This document shows positions 9,519-54,870 of a DNA stretch of 64,000 nucleotides, piece after piece. The first letter of the stretch is position 1. Every line of letters starts with the position of its first letter. The translations under genes were made by a program, and so were the position numbers. Source of the stretch: Peptococcaceae bacterium (GTDB lineage Bacteria; Bacillota; Dehalobacteriia; UBA4068; UBA4997); NCBI GenBank assembly GCA_022797295.1, contig JAAWKH010000007.1, positions 1,338-65,337 on the forward strand, in the 5' to 3' direction. The notes beneath the pieces are model-generated. The model saw only the letters and a program-made list of their open reading frames with translations, did no database searches and was not told where the DNA came from.

Positions 9519-9885
9519 TAGTATAATATATATAGAGAAAAAAATATTATTATTTTTGCGGGGCAGAATTGTCTATTGTTAATAGATGATTTCGCCCTAT
9601 TTTTTTACTCAAATAATAGTAAATCTAAAAACTTTAATTAAAACGAAAAACCCCCGTTGCAGAGGGGGTTTTCGTTTTTCGTACTTGCTTAGTTGCATAG
9701 TCACCTTTTTAGTTCATTATTATTATACCACAACAACAAAGAAAATGCAACTGCTTTGAAGAAACATTTTACACTCCCGACTGGCCGCAAACACCGTTCG
9801 GCAAAATGTTTGCCTTTATCTTCAGGCTATGCTATAATTATATCGTTACCATCTCCAATTCTGGTGACAGGAGGGAGGTGTTTTG

Positions 9886-10014
9886 ATGCAGTTTTTGCTA
9901 ACTCTGTCTGCCGCTGTTATGGGCAATGTGATTTCGTATTACATAGTCAAATGGTTGAATAGCGGTAAAAAACATGGTAATCAGCCTAGAACAACGTCAA
10001 ATTGGAAGTTATAA
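9886..10014 (+). CDS. Fst/par-like type I toxin peptide (42 aa, C-terminally extended variant): MQFLLTLSAAVMGNVISYYIVKWLNSGKKHGNQPRTTSNWKL.
   Basis: A TGCTATAAT extended -10 at 9827-9835 and a GGAGGGAGGTG RBS precede the ORF. The hydrophobic helix plus YYI(V/I)KWL(N/D) motif is shared with the 8 other cassettes, and an intrinsic terminator lies at 10021-10055. Confidence 0.65.
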   Translation: MQFLLTLSAAVMGNVISYYIVKWLNSGKKHGNQPRTTSNWKL

Positions 10015-10020
10015 AACAGA

Positions 10021-10092
10021 AAGCCCCTTGGAATGGCACTCCAAGGGGCTTTTCTGCGTTTTGATACATGCTAACTCTGATTTTTTAACTCC
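10021..10092 (-). ncRNA. Putative antitoxin antisense sRNA (RNAII-like) for the toxin at 9886-10014.
   Basis: A minus-strand promoter TTGACA(10127-10122)-N17-TATAAT(10104-10099) lies just downstream of the toxin. The transcript would include GTTTTGATACATGCTAACTCTGA, which is complementary to the toxin TIR GTTTTGATGCAGTTTTTGCTAACTCTG, and would end at the shared bidirectional terminator 10021-10055. Confidence 0.5.
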
Positions 10093-10134
10093 GTCATTAT
10101 TATAGCATAGCCGCTGTTGTTTGTCAAGCCGCAA

Positions 10135-11583
10135 TCAAGCCCGCTTTTCAAGCACATCCTCCTGTGGCTGCAAATTCAACACACGCCGCCGCCCAGCAAC
10201 ATCTCCTGCCAGGGCTGCGTTGGCATTGGCCAGCAGCAGCTTAATCCGGTTTTCCTGATTGGTGCGGGAAGCGCCGGGGTCGTAATCAATCGCCACAATG
10301 TTGGCTTCCGGGTGCCGCTCCTTAACCGCCCTAATCATCCCCTTGGCCACAATATGATTAGGTAAGCAGCCAAAAGGCTGCGCGGAAACGATGTTGTTCA
10401 CGCCGCTTTCCAAAAGGTCCAGCATTTCACCGGTCAGCAGCCAGCCCTCGCCCATCTTCACGCCCTGGCTAATGCAACCTTTGGCCGCCCGCTGCACCTT
10501 AGTAAAAGTGGCCGGCGGCATAAAAGTGCCATCCAGACGAATAACGTTACGCATCGCTTGCTGGCCCAGCACCAACAGCTTAAACAGCGGCTTGCGCAGG
10601 CAAGTCCCCAGGGTAACGTGGCTATAAAGCTTAGCGTCCACAAAGCTATTGTTCAGGGAATAAAGCAGAAAATCCAGCACCCCGGTCACCACCGGCTGCG
10701 CCCCCTGTTCAATCAGATAATTTTCCAGGTCATTGTTGCCCAGCGGCGCATATTTCATATAAATTTCGCCCACAATGCCAACCTTAGGCTTCTGCACTGG
10801 CCGCCGTTTAATCTGCTTAAAAGCGTTTAAGATTTTCAGATAATTCGGGCCCAGCAGCAGATAACGCCCTGTGGCAAAGGCCTGCTCCAGCTGGTTGGTG
10901 ATAATCTCCACCACCTTGTCAGTATGGCCGGGCACCTCCTCATATGGTTTGCATTGATTTTTCAGCCACAAAATCATATCCCCATAGTAGCAAGCAAACA
11001 GGCAGCGCAGTAAAACCCGCTTGCTCAGGCTGAAACCGCCGCCAGCCTGCAAAGCGTCCAGGCGCAAAGGGATTACTGGAATATGCGAAAGGCCGTTTTT
11101 CTCCATCGCCTTGCGCAGCAGATAGATGTAATTGCTGGCCCGGCAGCCGCCGCCAGTTTGGGTCAGCAGCAACGCCGTGCGCTCCAAATCGTATTTGCCG
11201 CTTTTCAGAGCGTCAAGCAGTTGGCCAATCACCAGCAAGGCCGGATAACATGTGTCATTATGTACGTTTTGCAGACCTCGCTCCGTCACGCTGTAGCCGG
11301 AATTTTCCAAAAACTCCACATTGTAGCCCTGCCGCCGCAAAATGCCGCCAATCAGCTTAAAATGCACCGGCAGCATTTGCGGCACCAAAATGGTGTAGTC
11401 CCGCTTCATATCCGCCGTGAACTCCCGCAGAGGCATTTCATGCTCCCGCAAGGGCATTTCCATCTCCTCACGCTCCGCCTGATTGAACAGCCACTCCCAA
11501 AGATTGTTGAACGGCTCAATCAGGCGGTTCAAATGTGCTTGTAGATTTTGCTCATTTTCTGATTTTTTGCTTTTCTCCGACAT
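10135..11583 (-). CDS. DUF2229 / 2-hydroxyacyl-CoA dehydratase-related protein, the partner of the upstream double activase.
   Basis: 482 aa with an AGGAGG RBS, immediately downstream of the 981-aa BadF/BadG/BcrA/BcrD-type ATPase. In many Clostridia these two parts are fused into one ~1400 aa 'acyl-CoA dehydratase activase-related' protein. Confidence 0.6.
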   Translation of the reverse strand: MSEKSKKSENEQNLQAHLNRLIEPFNNLWEWLFNQAEREEMEMPLREHEMPLREFTADMKRDYTILVPQMLPVHFKLIGGILRRQGYNVEFLENSGYSVTERGLQNVHNDTCYPALLVIGQLLDALKSGKYDLERTALLLTQTGGGCRASNYIYLLRKAMEKNGLSHIPVIPLRLDALQAGGGFSLSKRVLLRCLFACYYGDMILWLKNQCKPYEEVPGHTDKVVEIITNQLEQAFATGRYLLLGPNYLKILNAFKQIKRRPVQKPKVGIVGEIYMKYAPLGNNDLENYLIEQGAQPVVTGVLDFLLYSLNNSFVDAKLYSHVTLGTCLRKPLFKLLVLGQQAMRNVIRLDGTFMPPATFTKVQRAAKGCISQGVKMGEGWLLTGEMLDLLESGVNNIVSAQPFGCLPNHIVAKGMIRAVKERHPEANIVAIDYDPGASRTNQENRIKLLLANANAALAGDVAGRRRVLNLQPQEDVLEKRA

Positions 11584-35938: not shown

Positions 35939-36015
35939 TGGCGTGCTACGAGGGATTCGAACCCCCGACCTTCTGGTCCGTAGCCAGACGCTCTATCCAG
36001 CTGAGCTAGTAGCAC
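35939..36015 (-). tRNA. tRNA-Arg (anticodon ACG).
   Basis: The reverse complement folds as a cloverleaf with anticodon loop CTACGGA, T-loop GGTTCGAATCC and a 3' CCA. Confidence 0.85.
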
Positions 36016-36031
36016 ATATATTTATTAAAAG

Positions 36032-36126
36032 TGGCGGAGAGCAGGGGATTCGAACCCCCGATACAGGTTTTTGCCCGTATACTCGCTTAGCAGGCGAGCG
36101 CCTTCGACCGACTCGGCCAACTCTCC
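36032..36126 (-). tRNA. tRNA-Ser (anticodon GCT), class II with a long variable arm.
   Basis: Reverse complement GGAGAGTTGGCCGAGTCGG...CTGCTAA...GGTTCGAATCC...CCA, with a long extra arm. Confidence 0.85.
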
Positions 36127-36142
36127 ATGTCAAGTGCGTAAA

Positions 36143-36231
36143 TGGCGGAGAGGGTGGGATTCGAACCCACGACACATTGCTGTGCGACGGTTTTCAAGAC
36201 CGCTCCGTTATGACCACTTCGGTACCTCTCC
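36143..36231 (-). tRNA. tRNA-Ser (anticodon TGA), class II.
   Basis: Reverse complement GGAGAGGTACCGAAGTGG...CTTGAAA...GGTTCGAATCC...CCA. Confidence 0.85.
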
Positions 36232-38498: not shown

Positions 38499-38933
38499 CT
38501 AAACAAGGCAACTGCTATCTGACGACAACATATCCTCAAGCTCTTTAGCTGCTGCCTCAACAATTTTATGACAAGGATTATCATATCCCTCAAAATTTTG
38601 ATTTTGCAAGGAACAACATTGCAGTGAACCAAAATTACTTATGTAAAAATCTGTAAAATCATTAACCATAGTGTAACCAATTATGTTATCGCAATCTGTC
38701 CTCCCCTCTTGGGCAGTAAAAAGACCAATCATTGCAATCGCAACTGTGTATGCACCGCAACATGAAAGCTCCGTTTGCATCCCAAGGCCCATTATTGAAA
38801 ACATTTTACGTGTTTCTTCGTTTAAATTCAAGTTATAATATTCATTACAGGCCTTAAACATTGCTTCAGCACAGCTTAATTCTGTATCAACATGATATTT
38901 GTTCACCAACTCATACAACTTCATAGCAAACAC
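38499..38933 (-). CDS. C_GCAxxG_C_C family small Cys-rich protein (putative redox-active).
   Basis: 144 aa with SCAEAMF...CGAYTVAIAMIG...C...CC spacing, like the C-GCAxxG-C-C family. It is AT-rich and sits at the edge of the TA array. Confidence 0.5.
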   Translation of the reverse strand: MFAMKLYELVNKYHVDTELSCAEAMFKACNEYYNLNLNEETRKMFSIMGLGMQTELSCCGAYTVAIAMIGLFTAQEGRTDCDNIIGYTMVNDFTDFYISNFGSLQCCSLQNQNFEGYDNPCHKIVEAAAKELEDMLSSDSSCLV

Positions 38934-39136
38934 CCCAAAATATATTTTTGCTTTTAGTTTAACACAATATTAATCTAATTGCAACAATTATATTGATTTT
39001 TCGTCATAAAATTACTGTTGTTTTTATATTAGAACCCTAAATTATATTTTGATTTTTCTCCCAAAATATTCCATTTTATTACAAGTTATGTTATAATATA
39101 TTTGATTATCGCCTCTGGCAGATTGGAGGTGTTAAG

Positions 39137-39226
39137 ATGACTGTACTTTGTTCGATTGCCACTGTTATATTGGGTAATATAATCTCCTATTATATTATCA
39201 AATGGTTGGATAGCAGAATGCGATAG
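39137..39226 (+). CDS. Fst/par-like type I toxin peptide, cassette 1: MTVLCSIATVILGNIISYYIIKWLDSRMR.
   Basis: TGCTATAAT extended -10 at about 39106-39114 and a GGAGGTG RBS 7 nt upstream. One TM helix plus a basic C-terminus, followed by intrinsic terminator 39271-39300. Confidence 0.7.
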   Translation: MTVLCSIATVILGNIISYYIIKWLDSRMR

Positions 39227-39267
39227 ACAGCCTAGGTTTCAGGTCGTACCTACATATAAACGGCACA

Positions 39268-39337
39268 GAAAAACCCCCGTTGCAGCGGGGGTTTTTCGTT
39301 GTACATTTTTGTGTTAAAATGACCGCACTTTTTGTTC
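39268..39337 (-). ncRNA. Putative antitoxin antisense sRNA, cassette 1.
   Basis: Minus-strand promoter TTGACA(39372-39367)-N17-TATAAT(39349-39344). The transcript contains GTGTTAAAATGACCGCAC, complementary to the toxin TIR GTGTTAAGATGACTGTAC, and ends at the shared bidirectional terminator AAAAACCCCCGTTGCAGCGGGGGTTTTT. Confidence 0.55.
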
Positions 39338-39343
39338 ATCATT

Positions 39344-39372
39344 ATTATACCACCCGCTCACCCTTTTGTCAA
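39344..39372 (-). promoter_or_regulatory. Consensus sigma-70 promoter (TTGACA-N17-TATAAT) for the cassette-1 antitoxin RNA. The same promoter recurs in every cassette.
   Basis: Direct reading of the minus strand: TTGACAAAAGGGTGAGCGGGTGGTATAAT. Confidence 0.6.
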
Positions 39373-39580
39373 TACAAAAATCATCCTCCCATTTCTGAGA
39401 GGATGACTTCTTTATCTTAGTGCTTTGCCGCAGGCAGCTAGCACAAGATTAATCTTCATTTTACTTGCTGTTCAGCCCACGAACACATCTTACAAAATTT
39501 CTCCCAAAATATTCCATTTTATTACAACTTATGCTATAATATAGCTAATCTATCGCCTCTGGCAGAAAGGAGGTGTTAGA

Positions 39581-39673
39581 ATGATTCTACTTAGCACAAT
39601 CGCCGCAACTATCGTGGGTAATGTAGCTTCCTACTACATTATCAAATGGCTGGATAGTCGCAACAGGCGATAG
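39581..39673 (+). CDS. Fst/par-like type I toxin peptide, cassette 2: MILLSTIAATIVGNVASYYIIKWLDSRNRR.
   Basis: Same promoter/RBS architecture, with terminator GAAGCCCGGACTCCTACCTCCGGGCTTC at about 39697-39730. Confidence 0.7.
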   Translation: MILLSTIAATIVGNVASYYIIKWLDSRNRR

Positions 39674-39694
39674 CAGCCTGGGCCGAAGCAGTGC

Positions 39695-39778
39695 CTAAAA
39701 ACTGAATAGAAGAAGCCCGGACTCCTACCTCCGGGCTTCTTCGTTGTGCATTTTGTGATAGAATGATCCTACTTATTA
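39695..39778 (-). ncRNA. Putative antitoxin antisense sRNA, cassette 2.
   Basis: Promoter TTGACA(39813-39808)-N17-TATAAT(39790-39785) on the minus strand. It contains GTGATAGAATGATCCTACTTA, complementary to the toxin TIR GTGTTAGAATGATTCTACTTA. Confidence 0.55.
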
Positions 39779-39987
39779 CTTTTTTATTATACCACCCGCT
39801 CACACTTTTGTCAATAAAAAATTAGTTGTGCTTACCGCAGCCACTGAGCAGAAGATTAATCTTCGTTTTACTTGCTGTTTAGCCCACGAACACATCTTAC
39901 AAAATTTCTCCCAAAATATTCCATTTTATTACAACTTATGCTATAATATATTTGATTATCGCCTCTGGCAGATTGGAGGTGATATAT

Positions 39988-40077
39988 ATGTATTTCTTGT
40001 TATCCATAGTTTCTGCCGTTATTGGTAATGTACTTTCCAACTACATTATCGACTGGCTGAACGGTAGATGGCGATAA
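39988..40077 (+). CDS. Fst/par-like type I toxin peptide, cassette 3: MYFLLSIVSAVIGNVLSNYIIDWLNGRWR.
   Basis: TGCTATAAT at about 39943-39951 and a GGAGGTG RBS. Terminator at about 40112-40145. Confidence 0.7.
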   Translation: MYFLLSIVSAVIGNVLSNYIIDWLNGRWR

Positions 40078-40109
40078 TTCAGCCTGGGCCTAAGCTGTGC
40101 CTACAAACA

Positions 40110-40186
40110 GAATAGAAGAACCCCCGCGGCAACGGGGGTTCTTCGCTGTGCATTTTGTGATACATATGCATTTCTTGTTTATATCC
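40110..40186 (-). ncRNA. Putative antitoxin antisense sRNA, cassette 3.
   Basis: Promoter TTGACA(40222-40217)-N18-TATAAT(40198-40193). It contains GTGATACATATGCATTTCTTGTT, complementary to the toxin TIR GTGATATATATGTATTTCTTGTT. Confidence 0.55.
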
Positions 40187-40444
40187 GCAAATATTATAGC
40201 ACAATTCCTAACTCTTTGTCAAGCACTTTATCCCGCAAAGAAGTCATCCTCCCATTTCTGAGAGGATGACTTCTTTATCTTAGTGCTTTGCCGCAGGCAA
40301 CGAGCACAAGATCAATCTTCGGTTTGCTTGCTGTTCAGCCCACAAACACATCTTACAAAATTTCTCCCAAAATATTCCATTTTATTACAACTTATGCTAT
40401 AATATAACCAATCTATCGCCTCTGGCAGAAAGGAGGTGTATACG

Positions 40445-40537
40445 ATGTCCCTTATCTTTACATTCGCCGCAACTATCGTGGGTAATGTAGCTTCCTATTA
40501 CATTATCAAATGGCTGGATAATTGCATCAGGCGATAG
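40445..40537 (+). CDS. Fst/par-like type I toxin peptide, cassette 4: MSLIFTFAATIVGNVASYYIIKWLDNCIRR.
   Basis: TGCTATAAT at about 40395-40403 and a GGAGGTG RBS. Terminator 40575-40603. Confidence 0.7.
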   Translation: MSLIFTFAATIVGNVASYYIIKWLDNCIRR

Positions 40538-40574
40538 CAGCCTGGGCCTAAGCTGTGCCTACAAACAGAATAGA

Positions 40575-40640
40575 AGAACCCCCGCGGCAACGGGGGTTCT
40601 TCGCTGTGCATTTTGTGATACGATGCCCTTTATCTTTTAC
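40575..40640 (-). ncRNA. Putative antitoxin antisense sRNA, cassette 4.
   Basis: Promoter TTGACA(40675-40670)-N17-TATAAT(40652-40647). It contains GTGATACGATGCCCTTTATCTTTTAC, complementary to the toxin TIR GTGTATACGATGTCCCTTATCTTTAC. Confidence 0.55.
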
Positions 40641-40775
40641 GGTTATATTATACCACCCGCTCACCCTTTTGTCAATACAAAAATCATCCTCCCATTTCTG
40701 AGAGGATGACTTCTTTATCTTAGTGCTTTGCCGCAGGCAGCGAGCACAAGATTAATCTTCGGTTTACTTGCTGTT

Positions 40776-40921
40776 AACCTCGCAAGTACAGGTTTGAGTA
40801 AAATTTTTAATCGTCGTTTTCAATTTTTACGCCTTGCGGCGGAGCCTGCCTATATTGGCCTCCCGGCATGCTCAAGGGGAGCTGCCCCTGATTTTGAAAC
40901 CGGGCCAGTTTGTTTTTTAAC
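40776..40921 (+). repeat. About 146-bp structured repeat element, copy 1, inserted in the 5' leader region of cassette 5.
   Basis: About 93% identical to 41816-41950. It contains several stem-loops (GAGCCTGCC...GGCATGCTC; AGGGGAGCTGCCCCT; AACCGGGCCAGTT). It is absent from the equivalent position in the other cassettes. Confidence 0.75.
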
Positions 40922-41060
40922 CCTGTGTCGTCAGCTAGTAGCAATGTTAGTTACTTTGCTAGCCAACATTTTTCTTCCAAAATATTCCATATTTGCCCAA
41001 GCTATGCTATAATATATTTGCCGCAGTTCACATATATGCGGAGGAGGGAGGTGGGCGTAT

Positions 41061-41150
41061 ATGCTGAAGCTTTTACTAACTCTGCTCGGCACCGTACTTA
41101 CAAACGTAATTTCATATTACATTTGCAAATGGCTAGACGGTGATAAATAA
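41061..41150 (+). CDS. Fst/par-like type I toxin peptide, cassette 5: MLKLLLTLLGTVLTNVISYYICKWLDGDK.
   Basis: TGCTATAAT at about 41008-41016 and a GGAGGGAGGTG RBS. Terminator 41183-41213. Confidence 0.7.
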   Translation: MLKLLLTLLGTVLTNVISYYICKWLDGDK

Positions 41151-41182
41151 ACTAGCCGTGTGTAGACTACCTTAAAAGTTAG

Positions 41183-41250
41183 AAAACCCCCGTTGCAGCG
41201 GGGGTTTTCGTTTCCGTACATGCTTAACTTTTCCTAACTCTTTTTTGTTC
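41183..41250 (-). ncRNA. Putative antitoxin antisense sRNA, cassette 5.
   Basis: Promoter TTGACA(41286-41281)-N18-TATAAT(41262-41257). It contains TACATGCTTAACTTTTCCTAACTCT, complementary to the toxin TIR TATATGCTGAAGCTTTTACTAACTCT. Confidence 0.55.
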
Positions 41251-41488
41251 ATCCTTATTATACCACCCATACCACCCTTTTGTCAATACAAAAATCATCC
41301 TCCCATTTCTGAGAGGATGACTTCTTTATCTTAGTGCTTTGCGCAAGCACAAGATTAATCTTCGTTTTACTTGCTGTTCAGCCCACGAACACATTTTACA
41401 AAATTTCTCCTCAAAATATTCTATTTTATTACAACTTATGCTATAATATATATAATTCTATCGCCTCTGGCAGAAGGGAGGTGATTTA

Positions 41489-41581
41489 ATGAACTTATTA
41501 ATTTCCATAACCACTGCCGTAGTGGCAAATGTAATTTCCTATTACATTTGTAAATGGCTGGACGGCAGAAAAAGGCGGTAG
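41489..41581 (+). CDS. Fst/par-like type I toxin peptide, cassette 6: MNLLISITTAVVANVISYYICKWLDGRKRR.
   Basis: TGCTATAAT at about 41439-41447 and a GGGAGGTG RBS. Terminator 41617-41648. Confidence 0.7.
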   Translation: MNLLISITTAVVANVISYYICKWLDGRKRR

Positions 41582-41616
41582 CAGCCTGGGCCTAAGCTGT
41601 GCCTTAAAACAGAATA

Positions 41617-41688
41617 GAAAAACCCCCGCTGCAACGGGGGTTTTTCGCTGTACATTTTGTGATTCAATGAACTTATTAATTTATTTCC
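41617..41688 (-). ncRNA. Putative antitoxin antisense sRNA, cassette 6.
   Basis: Promoter TTGACA(41723-41718)-N17-TATAAT(41700-41695). It contains GTGATTCAATGAACTTATTAATTTA, complementary to the toxin TIR GTGATTTAATGAACTTATTAATTTC. Confidence 0.55.
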
Positions 41689-41815
41689 ACCATTATTATA
41701 CCACCCGCTCACCCTTTTGTCAATACAAAAATCATCCTCCCATTTCTGAGAGGATGACTTCTTTATCTTAGTGCTTTGCGCGAGCACAAGATTAATCTTC
41801 GTTTTACTTGCTGTT

Positions 41816-41950
41816 AACCCCGCAAGTACAGGTTTGAGTAAAATTTTTAATCGTCGTTTTCAATTTTTACGCCTTGCGGCGGAGCTTGCCTATTTTTGCC
41901 CCCGGCAAGCTCAAGGGGAGCTGCCCCTAATTTTAAAACCGGGCCGGTTT
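41816..41950 (+). repeat. About 146-bp structured repeat element, copy 2, after cassette 6 at the 3' flank of the array.
   Basis: Same element as 40776-40921. Here the long stem is perfect (GAGCTTGCC...GGCAAGCTC). Confidence 0.75.
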
Positions 41951-42183
41951 ATGATTCAATTTTATTTCCGACTTCCAATATTTCCTCGCCTTACGCCCAC
42001 CAGCTGAGCAGGCCGGCAGACAGAGAGGCTAGTGTAAGGCCAGAAAATCTAGCGGGAAAGCCGGTTTTTCAACCTTTCCGTCAAGCCAATCTCTTTGGCT
42101 CCGTCAGAAGCCTTAGAGATAGCTTCTATTATCGTTGGCTGATAGTAACGGAAAGTTTTTGCCTTACGATAGGATTTAAATGC

Positions 42184-45100
42184 TTATTTCTCAGTAACCT
42201 GAACAGTAATTACCAATGTTGTAACATTCTTGGTCAAATTAACAGAACGACGGTTTGCACCAACCAAAGAAATGGTGGTTCCATCTGCCTCTGCATTAAT
42301 AGGAGTAATAGTTTGACCGTTAGCCAAGCCAGAGAAACTAAAAGTATAGGTATTGCCATCCTGTTTGCCAGGAGTAATTCTTAAACTACCTGCCTGTACC
42401 TCATCACCATCGGCATTAACAACCTTCAAATTCAGGTTGGTAACACTATATGTGGTAGGTGTAGTAGTACCGTTGTTATCAGAATCAGCTTTGTAGCTAT
42501 GATAATCATCAACCAGAACTACTTCAGCATAGCTATCCTTGTTGATAACAGGAACATATACATAGGAGTTGCGAGAGATGTCACTCAAAGCACCTTCAAC
42601 ATAATCACCGCTCTTAGCGTCAATTACAAATACCTGAGTATTAGCGTCTGTCATAATGCTGTTTCTATAAACATCATTCTGATGACCTTCAGAAGCAGAT
42701 TTGTCCTCAGCAACATAAATACCTTTATCAGCAAAGCTAATCAAGCCACTGTTGAAGCCAATAACCTGTTTTGCATAACTGGACAAACCATGATCATTTG
42801 CATAAGAGTACACAGGCTCAATCTTTTCACCGCTCAGAGTGTAAACAATGAAAGCGTCAGCCTTAGAAGGTTCACCTTTAGCACTATTTGTAGCAGTATT
42901 CCAAGCCAATTCATAGGTTTCCTCATCGCCTACCAACGTAATAGCATGATCATTATCATAATCACGGAAGTTGTAAGCTTTAACGATACCATAATGATAC
43001 TTGGTATTGCTAGCGTCAGTGTAAGCCAAAACTTTAATTGCACCATTGGTGTTCAAATCATAAACTGCATATGCAGGCAGATTCTTAGGAACATTAGTAC
43101 CATCCAAAGTAACGTTTTCAACCTCAACAGGAGTAAAGTCGCCACCACCCAACAAAGCGGAACGTGTTACCAAAGAGGGATCAATATCAGTTTTGTCATT
43201 ACCAACTTCAAAAATGATTACATTAGAAGCCAATGCAAAAGATTTACCTGCGGTATCAACCAAGTAAGCGTTGTTCTTAACTTCAATTTCGCCAGCTTTG
43301 CCTTCTTTAGCAGTAAAGTCAAGACTCTTTTCGCCTGTTTCTTTAATTACTTCAAAGTTCTTGATTTCACCATTAGCATTCAGCTTATACTTAGCCAAAC
43401 GACCCATAATGGTATAAGCATCATCATCAGTGGGTTTGCCGTCCATGTTCTTTTCAAAATCATAGGTTACGGTATTGCCTTCCTGAGTAAACAAAGTAAT
43501 GGAAGACATGTTCTTAGCCCAGCTACCGCCATTGCCGCCACCATCAACAATAATACCGTACAAGGTAGTACCAGTAGAGGTTTCGTCAACAATAATAGCA
43601 GCCACAGTGTTATCCTTGTTCAGGATGTAACGAATGTTGTTGTTGTAAACATCTTCAATGCTTACATCGGAGTCGTTCAAATCTTCTTCATAGAAGTTAA
43701 TGCTAATTACAGTAGTGTTATTTTCTGTATCTTCCTGAGCACTATTAGGAACAACATAAGATTTGCCGCCAACAGTAATCTTCTGAGTGGATTCGGTCCA
43801 TCTGGTCAAAGTACCATTAGCGTCAGCAACTTTAACATACAAGTCGCCTTCAGCGATTTCACGAACAGCGTCGCCTACCTTCAAATCAGAAGGAGAAATG
43901 AACTTATCGCCATCGTAAATCAAAGTATCAGCATCGCTCATATTTACAGTCTTGGTCTTAGTACCAACCAATCTTGCAGAGGAAGCACTTACGGATTTGA
44001 TATAATAAGTTTTCTCTTCAAAATCCTTATCAGATCTAACCATATAAACTTGGTCGTCATCATTAAAGTACAAGCTGTAGTTAGTATTCTTGCTAGATAC
44101 AGCACCGTTGTTTTTGTCTGTATTACCAGTAGAAGGAGCATTAGTTCCCCAATCAACGGTATTAGCAGCATTGTAATTGGTTTTGTTCACCTGTACTCTG
44201 CTACCACTTTCAGTAGCTTTAGGAGTATCGGTAACGGTCTGAACATAAGATTCAACCTCAATGAAACGAGCATACAGCTTGCCATCATTGCCTTTTACAT
44301 AGTAAACTTTGCCCTGATGATTTTCCAAATTAAACAAATCGGTAGCATTATAGGATACAGCGGTATCTTTATCAACAATCAAAGTACCCTTGAAATTAAC
44401 CGGTCTGTTATAAGTGGATGTAACACCATTAGTAGTAACCTGCTCTGCTTCCAAAACTTTGCCTACGTTCCAATTCAATGTCTGAGCAGAAACGTCACGC
44501 AGTTGGTCAATCTGGAAAAAGCTGTTTACTTCAATGTAGCTGCCCTCAAAGCTGTCAGCCAACAGCGTTACAGCCTGAGAATTGGTGATACCAATCTGTT
44601 TCTTTACGAACTCGTTGGTGTCCTTATCATAAGTAACCAAGTCAGAGTCCAGAGTTTCGCTCAGCATAACAACGATGTCGCCACGTTTAGCAGCAGCAGA
44701 AGCCACGATGTTTACATCGTCCAGAATGTTGATCTGGTTAGCTTTGGTAACATAGTTTACCGGCCAGCTGCCAGTCAGGTTGTCGTTGTAGCCCAGCAGA
44801 CGCAACATAACAGTGATTGCTTCCTGGTTGGAGATGGTATCGTTAGGACGGAAGTTGCCATTAGCGTCGCCCTTAAAGATGCCCAAGCTTTCACCTGCAT
44901 TAATCCAGCCAGTGTACCAGCTGTTAGCTTTAACGTCTTTGAAGCTGCTGGCATTAGCCTCCAGCATAGTTGCGGTGTCTTTAGCGCCCGCAGCGGTCAC
45001 AGCAATTTTAGCAAACTCAGCACGGGTAATTGTCTTATCCGGACCAAATGTGCCATCTTCGTAACCTTCAATAATGCCCAATGCAACGGCTTTCTTGATA

Positions 45101-45216: not shown

Positions 45217-45892
45217 TTTCCTGTTTCCTCCTTATAAAGTTGGTGTAACGTTGACATCGGCTTCACGCAAGCCGATTTCTTCAAGCGCTCCCGCCAGCCC
45301 GTCGAATCTCCTTGTCCTTTTCAAAGGGCAACCCCTCATCAAGGCTTTTCAATTCCCGGCGAATTCGCTTTTCACCATAATTACATCCCTCGGTTCAAAA
45401 AACTTGCAGCTTTTTCAAAACTTTTTCAATTTTTTTTGAACAAGTTCTCCACAAGCTCCAAAACCAAGGCCCAACTTCACTTCCCGCAATTCCCCCGAGG
45501 CCGCCTAGCAACCTCCAGGCTGCCGCGCCAGCTTCGTTTTGCCGAATAACGAACCCCACGCAACCAACCCCCAGTCAACTTGGCGGTTTTGCAAAATCTG
45601 CGCAGCAAGCAAAGCCTGTCCTTATGTAGTGAAGAAAACGGTCAAACCTCCACCAATATCATATATATACTATCATATTACGCAAAAAAAAACAACCCTT
45701 TTTCCACAAAAAAATTAATTACACTCCTAGCAATTTACAATATATCTGCAAATTTTAATTTATCTGAAACACAAACCCAAGCAAACGTGATCATGTCAAC
45801 CGGCTTATTCCACAAACTTTCCACCACGCGCCCCACAAATCAACCCGCCAAACCCCTTGGCAAATCCGCCCCGCCAGTGCTATAATAACATC

Positions 45893-45968
45893 AGAATGAA
45901 AACAACGGGTTCATTTTATCACAAAAAAATGCGGAACGAAAAACCCCCGTGCCAGCGGGGGTTTTTAT
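45893..45968 (+). ncRNA. Putative antitoxin antisense sRNA for the minus-strand toxin at 46007-46096 (cassette 7).
   Basis: Plus-strand promoter TTGGCA(45857-62)-N18-TATAAT(45881-86) with a TGn extension. It contains TTCATTTTATCACAAAAAAATGCGGAACG, whose complement matches the toxin TIR, and ends at terminator AAAAACCCCCGTGCCAGCGGGGGTTTTT (45939-45968). Confidence 0.55.
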
Positions 45969-46006
45969 GTTGTTTATATGTAGGCACAACCTTAAGCCTA
46001 GGCTAA

Positions 46007-46096
46007 TTACCGCCGTCTGTCGTCCAGCCATTTGCAAATGCAATAGGAGATTACATTTACCAAGACACCAGTGACTATTGTAATTAACGGGTCCAT
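46007..46096 (-). CDS. Fst/par-like type I toxin peptide, cassette 7: MDPLITIVTGVLVNVISYCICKWLDDRRR.
   Basis: Minus strand, with RBS GAGGTGATAAG and a TGTTATATT extended -10-like box upstream at about 46120-46135 on the minus strand. Same peptide family. Confidence 0.65.
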   Translation of the reverse strand: MDPLITIVTGVLVNVISYCICKWLDDRRR

Positions 46097-46196
46097 CTTA
46101 TCACCTCAAATCTGCCTGAGGCGATAACTATATCTAATATAACACATTTTTCAACAAATTACAATTATAAATCTTATCTCGGACAATCCGAACATC

Positions 46197-46225
46197 TTGA
46201 CACAACCCCAAACCCGTGCTATAAT
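46197..46225 (+). promoter_or_regulatory. Consensus sigma-70 promoter (TTGACA-N17-TGcTATAAT) for the cassette-8 antitoxin RNA.
   Basis: TTGACACAACCCCAAACCCGTGCTATAAT read directly. Confidence 0.6.
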
Positions 46226-46231
46226 ATTAGC

Positions 46232-46313
46232 AGAGAATAATAGTAAGAGCATTTTTATCACAAAAAAATGCAAAACAAAGAACCCTGGCTGATTAGCGTC
46301 CCGGGGTTCTTTT
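46232..46313 (+). ncRNA. Putative antitoxin antisense sRNA, cassette 8.
   Basis: Downstream of the promoter above. It contains GCATTTTTATCACAAAAAAATGC, whose complement matches the cassette-8 toxin TIR GGTGATAAAAATGTTCT, and ends at terminator AGAACCCTGGCTGATTAGCGTCCCGGGGTTCTTTT. Confidence 0.5.
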
Positions 46314-46354
46314 ATGCTGTTTATATGTAGGCACAGCCTTAAGCCTAGGCTGAG

Positions 46355-46554
46355 TCATCGCCTTCTGCTATTCAGCCATTTTAAAGTGAAACTCAGTGAA
46401 ATCAAGCCGCAGGTGCAGATTGAACTGTAGTTGAACTAATGCCATAGTGCAACCAATTAAAATGAAATCCACTTTGTGATTTTCTATGGCAGATAATATA
46501 GTAGGAAGCCACATTACCCACAACTGCAGCGGCTATTGAGAAAAGTAAGAACAT
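46355..46554 (-). pseudogene. Fst/par-like toxin gene (cassette 8) disrupted by an insertion of about 110 bp.
   Basis: The N-terminus MFLLFSIAAAVVGNVASYYII is intact. After ATTATC a foreign segment of about 110 bp (46381-46491, containing the palindrome TGCCATAG...CTATGGCA) intervenes. The original C-terminus KWLNSRRR* (AAATGGCTGAATAGCAGAAGGCGATGA) lies out of frame at 46355-46381. Confidence 0.6.
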
Positions 46555-46677
46555 TTTTATCACCTCCAATCTGCCTGAGGCGATAACTATATCTAATATA
46601 ACACATTTTTCAACAAATTACAATTAAAAAGGAGCAAAAGGCAATTCCAAGCTTTTGCTCCTTTTTTTAATATTCTA

Positions 46678-54635: not shown

Positions 54636-54711
54636 GGACCATTAACTCAGTTGGTAGAGTAGCTGACTCTTAATCAGAATGTCCACGGTTCGAGTCCGTG
54701 ATGGTCCACCA
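54636..54711 (+). tRNA. tRNA-Lys (anticodon CTT).
   Basis: Cloverleaf with anticodon loop CTCTTAA, T-loop GGTTCGAGTCC and CCA. It is close to the Bacillus tRNA-Lys backbone, with a G27-A43 mismatch. Confidence 0.8.
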
Positions 54712-54714
54712 TAT

Positions 54715-54790
54715 GATCCATTAGCTCAGCTGGCAGAGCACCTGACTTTTAATCAGGGTGTCCCGCGTTCGAATCGCGGATGGATCACCA
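54715..54790 (+). tRNA. tRNA-Lys (anticodon TTT).
   Basis: Anticodon arm CCTGA-CTTTTAA-TCAGG, T-loop GTTCGAATC and CCA. Confidence 0.85.
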
Positions 54791-54793
54791 TCT

Positions 54794-54870
54794 GGCACGT
54801 TGGAGAAGCGGCTTAACTCACCAGCCTTTCACGCTGGCATTCACGGGTTCGAATCCCGTACGTGTCACCA
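54794..54870 (+). tRNA. tRNA-Glu (anticodon TTC).
   Basis: GGCACGTTGG...GCCTTTCACGCTGG...ACGGGTTCGAATCCCGTACGTGTCACCA strongly resembles Bacillus tRNA-Glu. Confidence 0.8.

Follow-up and report, generated by a model that had tools for sequence, protein, structure and literature searches.

The 64,000-nt stretch of Peptococcaceae bacterium contig JAAWKH010000007.1 analysed here (referred to below as the window) very probably contains a tandem array of type I toxin-antitoxin (TA) cassettes built like par of pAD1, six of them in the array and three elsewhere in the window. The six array cassettes (C1-C6, ~410-610 nt each) are arranged head-to-tail on the + strand at 39055-41730, with toxin ATG codons at 39137, 39581, 39988, 40445, 41061 and 41489. 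Two further cassettes, M1 (ATG at 46554) and M2 (ATG at 46096), lie on the - strand within 45860-46630, and the ninth, U9, stands apart on the + strand at 9797-10135 (ATG at 9886).

The cassettes share one layout: toxin promoter, 5' untranslated region (UTR), open reading frame (ORF), 3' UTR, terminator hairpin, a copy of the toxin start region and an opposite-strand promoter. The toxin promoter has an extended -10 element (TGnTATAAT or TGnTATATT) and a weak -35 in a consensus scan; it would be of moderate strength and would yield a toxin mRNA of ~190 nt. It is followed by a 5' UTR of ~30 nt containing UAUCGCCUC...GGAGGUGAUA, an ORF of 29-30 codons (42 in U9; the C1 peptide is MTVLCSIATVILGNIISYYIIKWLDSRMR), a 3' UTR of ~40 nt and a GC-rich hairpin. 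In all units this terminator hairpin is located between the ORF and the repeat, and between an A-rich and a T-rich run; in the terminator scan most hairpins score on the antisense strand, and that of U9 scores on both strands. The copy of the toxin start region sits within the ~40 nt beyond the hairpin. The antisense promoter, ~45 nt beyond the shared bidirectional terminator, has the form TTGACA-17/18-TGnTATAAT on the opposite strand and matches the sigma-70 consensus at 12/12 positions in eight units and 11/12 in the ninth (M2); an antisense RNA of ~78-85 nt would be expected from it. The convergent promoters for the toxin mRNA and the antisense RNA come from the consensus scan only, as does antisense transcription, and all RNA ends and transcripts given here are predictions.

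In the proposed mechanism the antisense RNA would be made in excess, by analogy with par and with the Lpt system of Lactobacillus rhamnosus. Its 3' half would be the terminator hairpin, complementary to the 3' end of the toxin mRNA, while its largely unstructured 5' half would be the complement of the DNA repeat of the toxin's own start region. Before antisense contact, the Shine-Dalgarno (SD) sequence would be hidden by a 5' stem-loop of the mRNA. The antisense RNA would first contact the toxin mRNA at the terminator and would then zip onto the last SD bases, the spacer, the AUG and the first 4-7 codons, so that ribosome binding is blocked.

Start-region repeats and predicted pairing between toxin and antisense RNAs

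A preliminary description of this DNA had proposed that the region around each toxin start codon is repeated just beyond the terminator. Local alignment finds such a repeat, between the terminator and the opposite-strand promoter, in all nine units including those on the - strand. The example given for C1 is exact: 39129-39146 (GTGTTAAGATGACTGTAC) and 39311-39328 (GTGTTAAAATGACCGCAC) are identical at 15 of 18 positions, and all three differences are compatible with G:U pairing in an RNA duplex. The start-region copy of the repeat is termed TIR below, and the downstream repeat, from which the 5' end of the antisense RNA would be transcribed, is termed DR. The repeat is ~25-30 nt long and spans the toxin start codon. 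In seven of the nine units, no ungapped stretch anywhere in the window, on either strand, matches the 20-nt start region better than the unit's own downstream copy; identity in these seven is 15-19/20, at an offset of +178 to +182 nt (M1, with its insertion, has +302). The U9 and C5 repeats contain indels, were missed by ungapped matching and were found only with a gap. Alignment scores of start region against downstream copy are 33-44 for cognate combinations and 10-26 across cassettes.

The repeat had also been described as spanning both the ribosome binding site and the start codon. This holds for the spacer, the AUG and the first 4-7 codons, but not for the SD core: the first repeated bases are the GUG at the end of the SD sequence GGAGGUG, and GGAGG itself lies outside the repeat. 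This boundary bears on the idea of a further small ORF on the toxin strand that begins in the downstream copy, in which case the similarity would be a coding duplication. The ATG and toxin-like first codons are often kept, most downstream copies retain the ATG, and an ORF of ~33 codons can be read from the C1 downstream copy. However, the downstream copy of 8/9 cassettes carries TTTT in place of the SD core GGAGG (TTTC in C5), the ATG has become ATA in U9 and in the relatives L001 and L004, indels relative to the toxin break the frame, and the segment is located after a strong terminator. A second ORF is the least probable of the explanations considered.

All-against-all pairing was calculated for the nine toxin start regions (-22 to +33) and the nine antisense 5' segments with RNAduplex. 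Cognate energies are -31.5 to -38.1 kcal/mol (nine pairs), whereas the 72 non-cognate pairs have a mean of -14.1 kcal/mol (sd 3.6) and a best value of -22.6 kcal/mol. The cognate lead over non-cognate partners is 10-22 kcal/mol in rows and columns, and the summed cognate duplex energy was matched by none of 100,000 permutations of the cassette assignment. RNAcofold ddG, which allows intramolecular structure and was computed between the toxin mRNA's 5' part and the full antisense RNA, gave a cognate mean of -19.4 and a non-cognate mean of -5.1. With both measures the cognate partner ranks top in 9/9 rows and 9/9 columns. The pairing matrices support in silico the cognate, non-cross-reacting specificity that had been suggested. 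The further suggestion that such specificity explains the coexistence of nine paralogues goes too far, as cross-reacting antitoxins would not block coexistence.

The TIR and DR positions, placed by alignment, and the cognate duplex energies are as follows. In the array they lie on the + strand at 39129-39153 and 39311-39337 in C1 (-34.7 kcal/mol), 39573-39597 and 39755-39779 in C2 (-31.5 kcal/mol), 39979-40005 and 40157-40186 in C3 (repeat family D18; -38.1 kcal/mol), 40436-40459 and 40615-40637 in C4 (-31.9 kcal/mol), 41056-41083 and 41215-41241 in C5 (one 1-nt gap; -32.8 kcal/mol), and 41481-41514 and 41659-41690 in C6 (19/20 identical in the core; -32.7 kcal/mol). On the - strand they are at 46539-46563 and 46237-46261 in M1 (-34.7 kcal/mol) and at 46077-46110 and 45895-45928 in M2 (-34.1 kcal/mol). 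In U9 (+ strand) the TIR is at 9878-9906 and the DR, in two blocks with a 5-nt gap and with ATG changed to ATA, at 10056-10079 (-34.1 kcal/mol).

In the six-cassette alignment, conservation is among the lowest over the TIR plus first codons and over the DR, which lie between well conserved promoters, UTRs and terminators. The terminator overlap is 100% identical between C3 and C4, and that of C6 is 89% identical to both. Since the C3 and C4 overlaps are identical, specificity must rest on the repeat alone. Each antisense RNA should then repress only its own toxin, given a modelled pairing region that differs between cassettes and co-varies within them.

The same terminator identities speak for a rival view, on which the antisense RNA acts mainly via the 3'-end/terminator overlap, leading to RNase III cleavage or decay as in txpA/RatA and bsrG/SR4, with the repeat adding little and with C3, C4 and C6 cross-regulating one another. 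In par, first contact is made at the terminator loops (PMC7472228), and antitoxins that overlap the 3' end and act by decay are known (PMC3919570). However, control through the overlap leaves unexplained why the repeat is retained, with co-variation and a wobble bias, across distant lineages (see below), and in par and Lpt the overlap and the repeat work jointly (PMC7472228, PMC5608710). Control mainly through the 3' overlap is considered unlikely.

The predicted folds are compatible with the RNA structures that the preferred mechanism, repeat-guided sequestration of the start region, would use. The SD sequence is base-paired in 8/9 minimum free energy (MFE) folds of the predicted toxin mRNAs and lies within the 5' hairpin in six; a downstream partner pairs with it in C4 and M1, and most of it is unpaired in C5. 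In the 5' stem-loop UAUCGCCUC pairs with GGAGGUGAUA, sequestering the SD. In C1 this element, UAUCGCCUC...GGAGGUG(AUA), is at 39106-39133 on the + strand, and it also occurs in the other cassettes (the C3 copy is at 39957-39984). A separate long-range 5' upstream helix was not seen consistently in the MFE folds, the mRNA 5' end being paired inside the SD stem-loop. The predicted antisense RNAs have a mostly open 5' segment followed by the terminator hairpin. The conserved YUNR U-turn is absent from the terminator loops as read (UUGCAG, CGGCAA, CUGCAA and similar), with the M2 loop, CUGG, fitting the motif; YUNR is not present in all par homologues (PMC7472228).

Probable selection on sense-antisense pairing

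If the two copies of the repeat are kept to pair as RNA, differences between them should be of particular kinds, and this was examined in an alignment of 24 cassettes from the window and related genomes. Transitions between TIR and DR that keep a G:U pair outnumber the reverse by 15:2 in the window and by 40:5 in the 24 cassettes (p = 8e-8). The G:U-keeping directions are TIR-T/DR-C and TIR-G/DR-A, giving U:G or G:U in the sense-antisense duplex. Mutation bias cannot account for this skew, because the two copies share a strand and are separated by 180 nt. Moreover, 83.9% of the inter-RNA cells form standard pairs, compared with 56% after shuffling and 39-48% when the partner is slid, and 22/24 inter-RNA pairs have changed on both sides. 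The covariation score is 0.726 versus 0.21 for shuffles and was reached by 0/500 of them. A mirrored change is also seen between the orthologues M1 and L005, where an A-to-T in the TIR is matched by an A-to-T in the DR. At the level of sequence, the wobble-biased differences and two-sided changes point to selection on RNA pairing.

In the 24-cassette alignment the downstream segment of each row was placed by alignment to its own TIR. Because this placement is not unbiased, a 52x52 duplex matrix was run with unselected 160-nt downstream regions. The cognate region came top for 39/52 toxins. Roughly half of the toxins that failed have an orthologue in the matrix (C1/L001, M1/L005, U9/L007 and the Veillonella group); the remainder have no convincing repeat, and their start codons are possibly mis-called.

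These data also bear on whether the repeat is a DNA-level relic or recombination substrate, such as a duplication scar or gene-conversion tract, that plays no part in RNA pairing. Recombination among the cassettes is clear: strains differ in array order and copy number, and M1 looks mosaic. Relics decay, however, and yet the two copies co-vary over deep divergence; the 40:5 skew is towards G:U-preserving differences, which are relevant only to sense-antisense RNA; and the repeat is always directly downstream of an opposite-strand consensus promoter. A relic of this kind is very improbable.

The toxin family and its known relatives

The predicted toxins are peptides of 29-30 aa (42 aa in U9) with a hydrophobic transmembrane (TM) helix, an invariant Trp, a basic tail and the motif ..SYYI[IC]KWLD... 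W23 and L24 do not vary among 41 peptides, whose tails are rich in K, R and D. A small TM-helix toxin with a conserved Trp and a charged C-terminus is the signature of the Fst/Ldr superfamily (PMC7472228, PMC2887945). The P/D/S/T-XXX-G(C) motif takes the form T/S-XXX-G in C1 and C3, and many Lachnospiraceae members have S-V-x-A-G; the variants are A-XXX-G in C2, C4 and U9 and T-XXX-A in C6, and C5 and M2 are without the motif.

The most conserved peptide motif of the toxins, G/A-N-V-I-S-Y-Y-I-I/C, is encoded by a perfect 9-11-bp RNA hairpin, at 41525-41551 in C6 and at the equivalent codons in every cassette. Across 47 cassettes 90% of cells in this hairpin pair, and 7/11 pairs show compensatory changes. 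Amino-acid changes are coupled, GGU..AUC (Gly..Ile) alternating with GCA..UGC (Ala..Cys), and such coupled compensatory changes indicate that RNA structure and peptide sequence constrain each other.

The clearest link to a described locus came from Rfam. At an E-value threshold most matches were terminator look-alikes, and SpF66 (RF02442) was the sole informative match: three cassettes, at 40404-40619, 41017-41216 and 41457-41660, match it end to end with 24-26.5 bits, below its gathering score of 42. The RF02442 consensus carries a 32-codon ORF, MSLILELVLTIIADVIAGIILYFVCKWLDGKE, ending CKWLDGKE, and hhalign of the toxin family against this ORF gave a probability of 97.8% (E 1e-12). RF02442 is filed as a Streptococcus 'sRNA'; by its consensus ORF it is a type I toxin mRNA. 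SpF66 is the pneumococcal F66/srn502, between SP2168 and SP2169, and its neighbour F67/srn503 is annotated as an Fst-family type I toxin (PMC3395615, PMC12323649). Two tandem pneumococcal Fst homologues, Fst-A and Fst-B, have been described between fcsR and adcA, with an antisense sRNA detected and toxicity shown (Fozo 2010, PMC2887945). The homology to the SpF66 ORF, taken with the Fst annotation of F66/F67, places the window toxins, as judged by sequence, in an already known but poorly modelled branch of the Fst/Ldr superfamily. Among three reference toxins tried, LdrD was the best in hhalign at 84%, and Fst of pAD1 reached only 2%.

Direct searches for the peptides returned little. There was no match to Pfam PF13955 (Fst_toxin), a PDB sequence search with the peptide profile gave 0 matches, and neither YYICKWL nor YYIIKWL was found in papers by full-text literature search. 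An exact look-up of 10 peptides in a protein collection found two, one unnamed and one called 'hypothetical protein'. A profile search of a large protein collection, in which the 42-aa U9 peptide was placed first in the query, returned at least 2,508 clusters, essentially all unnamed.

The analogy with par that was drawn at the outset is borne out by convergent promoters, a bidirectional terminator, an SD-hiding 5' stem-loop and a direct repeat, and by homology to the ORF of the Fst-annotated SpF66 locus. Par-like loci are defined by convergent promoters, a bidirectional terminator, the direct repeats DRa and DRb, an SD-hiding 5' stem-loop and a 5' upstream helix, with DRa/DRb letting RNA II sequester the toxin initiation region (PMC7472228). 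The RNA II of par(pAD1) gives no protection against the EF0409 RNA I, presumably because their DR sequences differ (Weaver 2020, PMC7472228). Both par of pAD1 (Fst RNA I/RNA II) and par(EF0409) resemble the cassettes in their convergent promoters, shared bidirectional terminator, direct repeats and SD-hiding stem-loop. Fst likewise has a TM helix and a charged tail, although the Trp conserved in the present family is replaced by Val at that position in Fst of pAD1. Unlike par, the cassettes have one continuous ~25-30-nt repeat (gap-split in U9 and C5) in place of DRa plus DRb and show neither a conserved YUNR U-turn nor a clear 5' upstream helix; they are present in nine copies, six in tandem, and their peptide is not recognised by the Pfam and NCBIfam Fst models.

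The closest architecture is that of Lpt/RNA II of L. rhamnosus, closer than par(pAD1). Its toxin is 29 aa long, its antisense RNA measures ~74 nt, and one 24-nt repeat spans the start codon; it also has convergent transcripts, an SD-sequestering stem-loop and an RNA II promoter that is the stronger of the two (PMC5608710). Lpt has the conserved Pro11 of a PXXXG motif (PMC6811638), whereas the window peptides are without Pro, and unlike the window array it is a single plasmid-borne copy. Pneumococcal Fst-A/Fst-B (F66/srn502 and F67/srn503; RF02442) belongs to the same toxin subfamily and is also a tandem duplication, but of two copies as opposed to nine, and the RNA match is below threshold.

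Discrimination between paralogous cassettes by a short variable pairing region of the antitoxin RNA is also a property of zorO-orzO/zorP-orzP, Ibs/Sib and SprG/SprF. OrzP, although complementary at 15/18 nt, is unable to repress zorO, and discrimination by a few variable nucleotides has been shown experimentally (PMC3919570). Discrimination by Sib RNAs is reported by Han et al. 2010, as cited in PMC3919570, and SprF RNAs show some cross-regulation (PMC6393307). These systems differ from the window in having divergent or fully overlapping genes and unrelated toxin families, as opposed to the 3'-convergent arrangement with a direct repeat seen here. E. coli ldr/rdl systems occur in multiple copies with long direct repeats, but Rdl is encoded opposite the ldr 5' UTR (PMC2887945) and the antisense gene here is 3'-convergent. 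The ldr/rdl geometry was rejected, since the strongest opposite-strand promoter of each cassette (11-12/12) is 3' of the terminator and opposite-strand matches over the 5' UTR are weak (9/12). The C. difficile CRISPR-associated type I TA (NF047374) was rejected as well, the overlap being ~35-45 nt here as against 131-283 nt there (PMC5961336).

Several observations weigh against the assignment of the window units to par-like cassettes under strictly cognate control. The curated Pfam and NCBIfam toxin models accept none of the peptides at their cut-offs: PF13940 (Ldr_toxin) matches 8/41 members (best E 0.015) and NF033608 (Fst) 3/41 (best E 0.025), both sub-threshold, and the C. difficile model NF047374 matches 12/41 (best E 1e-5), far under its 60-bit cut-off. 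At the gathering threshold Rfam returned tRNAs only, and the cassettes reached that score for no family. The identical terminator overlap of C3 and C4 makes some cross-contact possible. No convincing repeat was found in a few distant relatives (L013, L014, L019 and L024), which mis-called starts could explain. Finally, the metagenome scaffold L043 combines the C3 toxin with the C4 repeat, and the C6 toxin with a repeat that matches no known toxin. These non-cognate combinations are either recombinants or assembly chimeras, and an 84-nt identical stretch makes mis-assembly plausible. If they are real, non-cognate arrangements are tolerated and the case for strict cognate control is weakened; an antisense RNA acting in trans on the start region could, however, be supplied by a copy elsewhere.

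Array organisation, strain variation and distribution

The remaining cassette features are located as follows. The toxin ORFs of the array are at 39137-39226 (C1), 39581-39673 (C2), 39988-40077 (C3), 40445-40537 (C4), 41061-41150 (C5) and 41489-41581 (C6); their bidirectional terminators are at 39268-39297, 39709-39742, 40115-40144 (identical to that of C4), 40573-40602, 41182-41209 and 41617-41646, and their antisense promoters, on the - strand, at 39344-39372, 39786-39814, 40193-40222, 40647-40675, 41257-41286 and 41695-41723. All six promoters score 12/12 plus the TG; that of C1 reads TTGACA-17-TGnTATAAT, and the predicted RNA runs from ~39337 to 39262. In M1 the ORF (46554-46355) is followed by a terminator hairpin at 46277-46312 and a + strand antisense promoter at 46197-46225 (12/12 plus TG). 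The corresponding features of M2 are at 46096-46007, 45939-45966 (bidirectional terminator) and 45857-45886 (+ strand, TTGGCA-18-TGnTATAAT, 11/12 plus TG). Those of U9 are at 9886-10014 (42 aa), 10019-10053 (bidirectional terminator) and 10099-10127 (- strand, 12/12 plus TG).

M1, M2, U9 and an orphan at 9621-9743 were located with a profile built from the six array cassettes. The orphan unit (9621-9750), just upstream of U9, consists of a terminator, a DR-like segment and a promoter on the opposite strand with a weaker -35; it contains no toxin ORF. Its predicted antisense RNA pairs with 0/9 TIRs (no better than -17.3 kcal/mol), and it is probably a remnant antitoxin left after toxin loss.

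Other elements accompany the array. A conserved hairpin, TCATCCTC-N10-GAGGATGA, with A/T runs at its flanks lies directly upstream of the antisense -35 in most cassettes (39381-39406, 40246-40271, 40684-40709, 41295-41320 and 41732-41757) and looks like a two-way insulating terminator between adjacent cassettes. A segment of ~180 nt that is not part of the cassette consensus occurs at 40740-40920, after C4 and before C5, and at 41780-41959, after C6 and before the gene for an SLH-domain protein; the copies are 86-95% identical, which points to duplication or insertion of C5-C6 and its flank as one block. The wider region is flanked by two clusters of three tRNA genes each, at 35942-36231 (- strand) and 54636-54867 (+ strand).

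The array is flanked by a C_GCAxxG gene and the SLH-domain gene in several metagenome-assembled genomes of the same species. Compared with window positions 38933-42184, the copies of this locus in other metagenome-assembled genomes (L041-L046) contain 4-7 cassettes in varying order, with C6 duplicated and C1/C2 lost. The M1 toxin gene is interrupted between the codons for YYII and KWL by a structured element of ~110 nt (46491-46382, - strand; RNA fold z = -4.1), which in another genome (L005, 4640-4757) occupies the same codon position of a different paralogue. A ~82-nt relative sharing its right end, GTTCAACTACAG...CTGAGTTTCAC, lies in the 3' UTRs of three other cassettes (L043, 1610-1691; L005, 4301-4383 and 5003-5085), and all five copies found lie inside these TA cassettes. 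The insert had no Rfam match, and its right-end motif gave 0 matches in a metagenome scan; it may be a small site-specific mobile element.

The toxin family occurs in gut and oral anaerobes and on enterococcal megaplasmids, some members being present on about 800 to 1,000 or more contigs. Among 45 relatives, drawn from Selenomonadaceae, Veillonella, Lachnospiraceae, Gemella and other groups, most keep the post-terminator repeat; it is also present in Anaerococcus and on plasmids of E. faecium and M. gnavus. Relatives with this repeat were found in 186 plasmid records of Enterococcus; others lie on small plasmids (M. gnavus, Aerococcus and S. suis) and on a few phage contigs.

Overall, the repeat architecture is the known design of the par/Fst family of RNA-controlled TA systems and involves no new mechanism, and discrimination by DR sequences between co-resident par loci has been described before (PMC7472228). 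The novelty is incremental and consists of a large subfamily in anaerobic Bacillota with almost no annotation, and of an array that is unusually large and varies between strains. A very abundant small-peptide family with next to no annotation can in this way be recognised as a putative par/Fst-type type I TA family with the full RNA architecture. Its nine paralogues here, together with many relatives, form a natural set of matched and mismatched sense-antisense pairs that could serve to establish how much complementarity sets specificity.

In a more speculative extension, to which only a small chance is given, the hypervariable TIR/DR islands would not drift neutrally but be under diversifying selection as RNA 'address codes'; as cassette relatives sit on plasmids and phage contigs, chromosomal copies would then serve as anti-addiction decoys, and mobile copies would escape by a change of code via G:U-wobble intermediates. 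As a related possibility, the ~110-nt element would be a site-specific mobile element or switch that targets the toxin family. If true, the address-code reading would make the cassettes a natural multi-allelic system for the evolution of RNA-RNA specificity.

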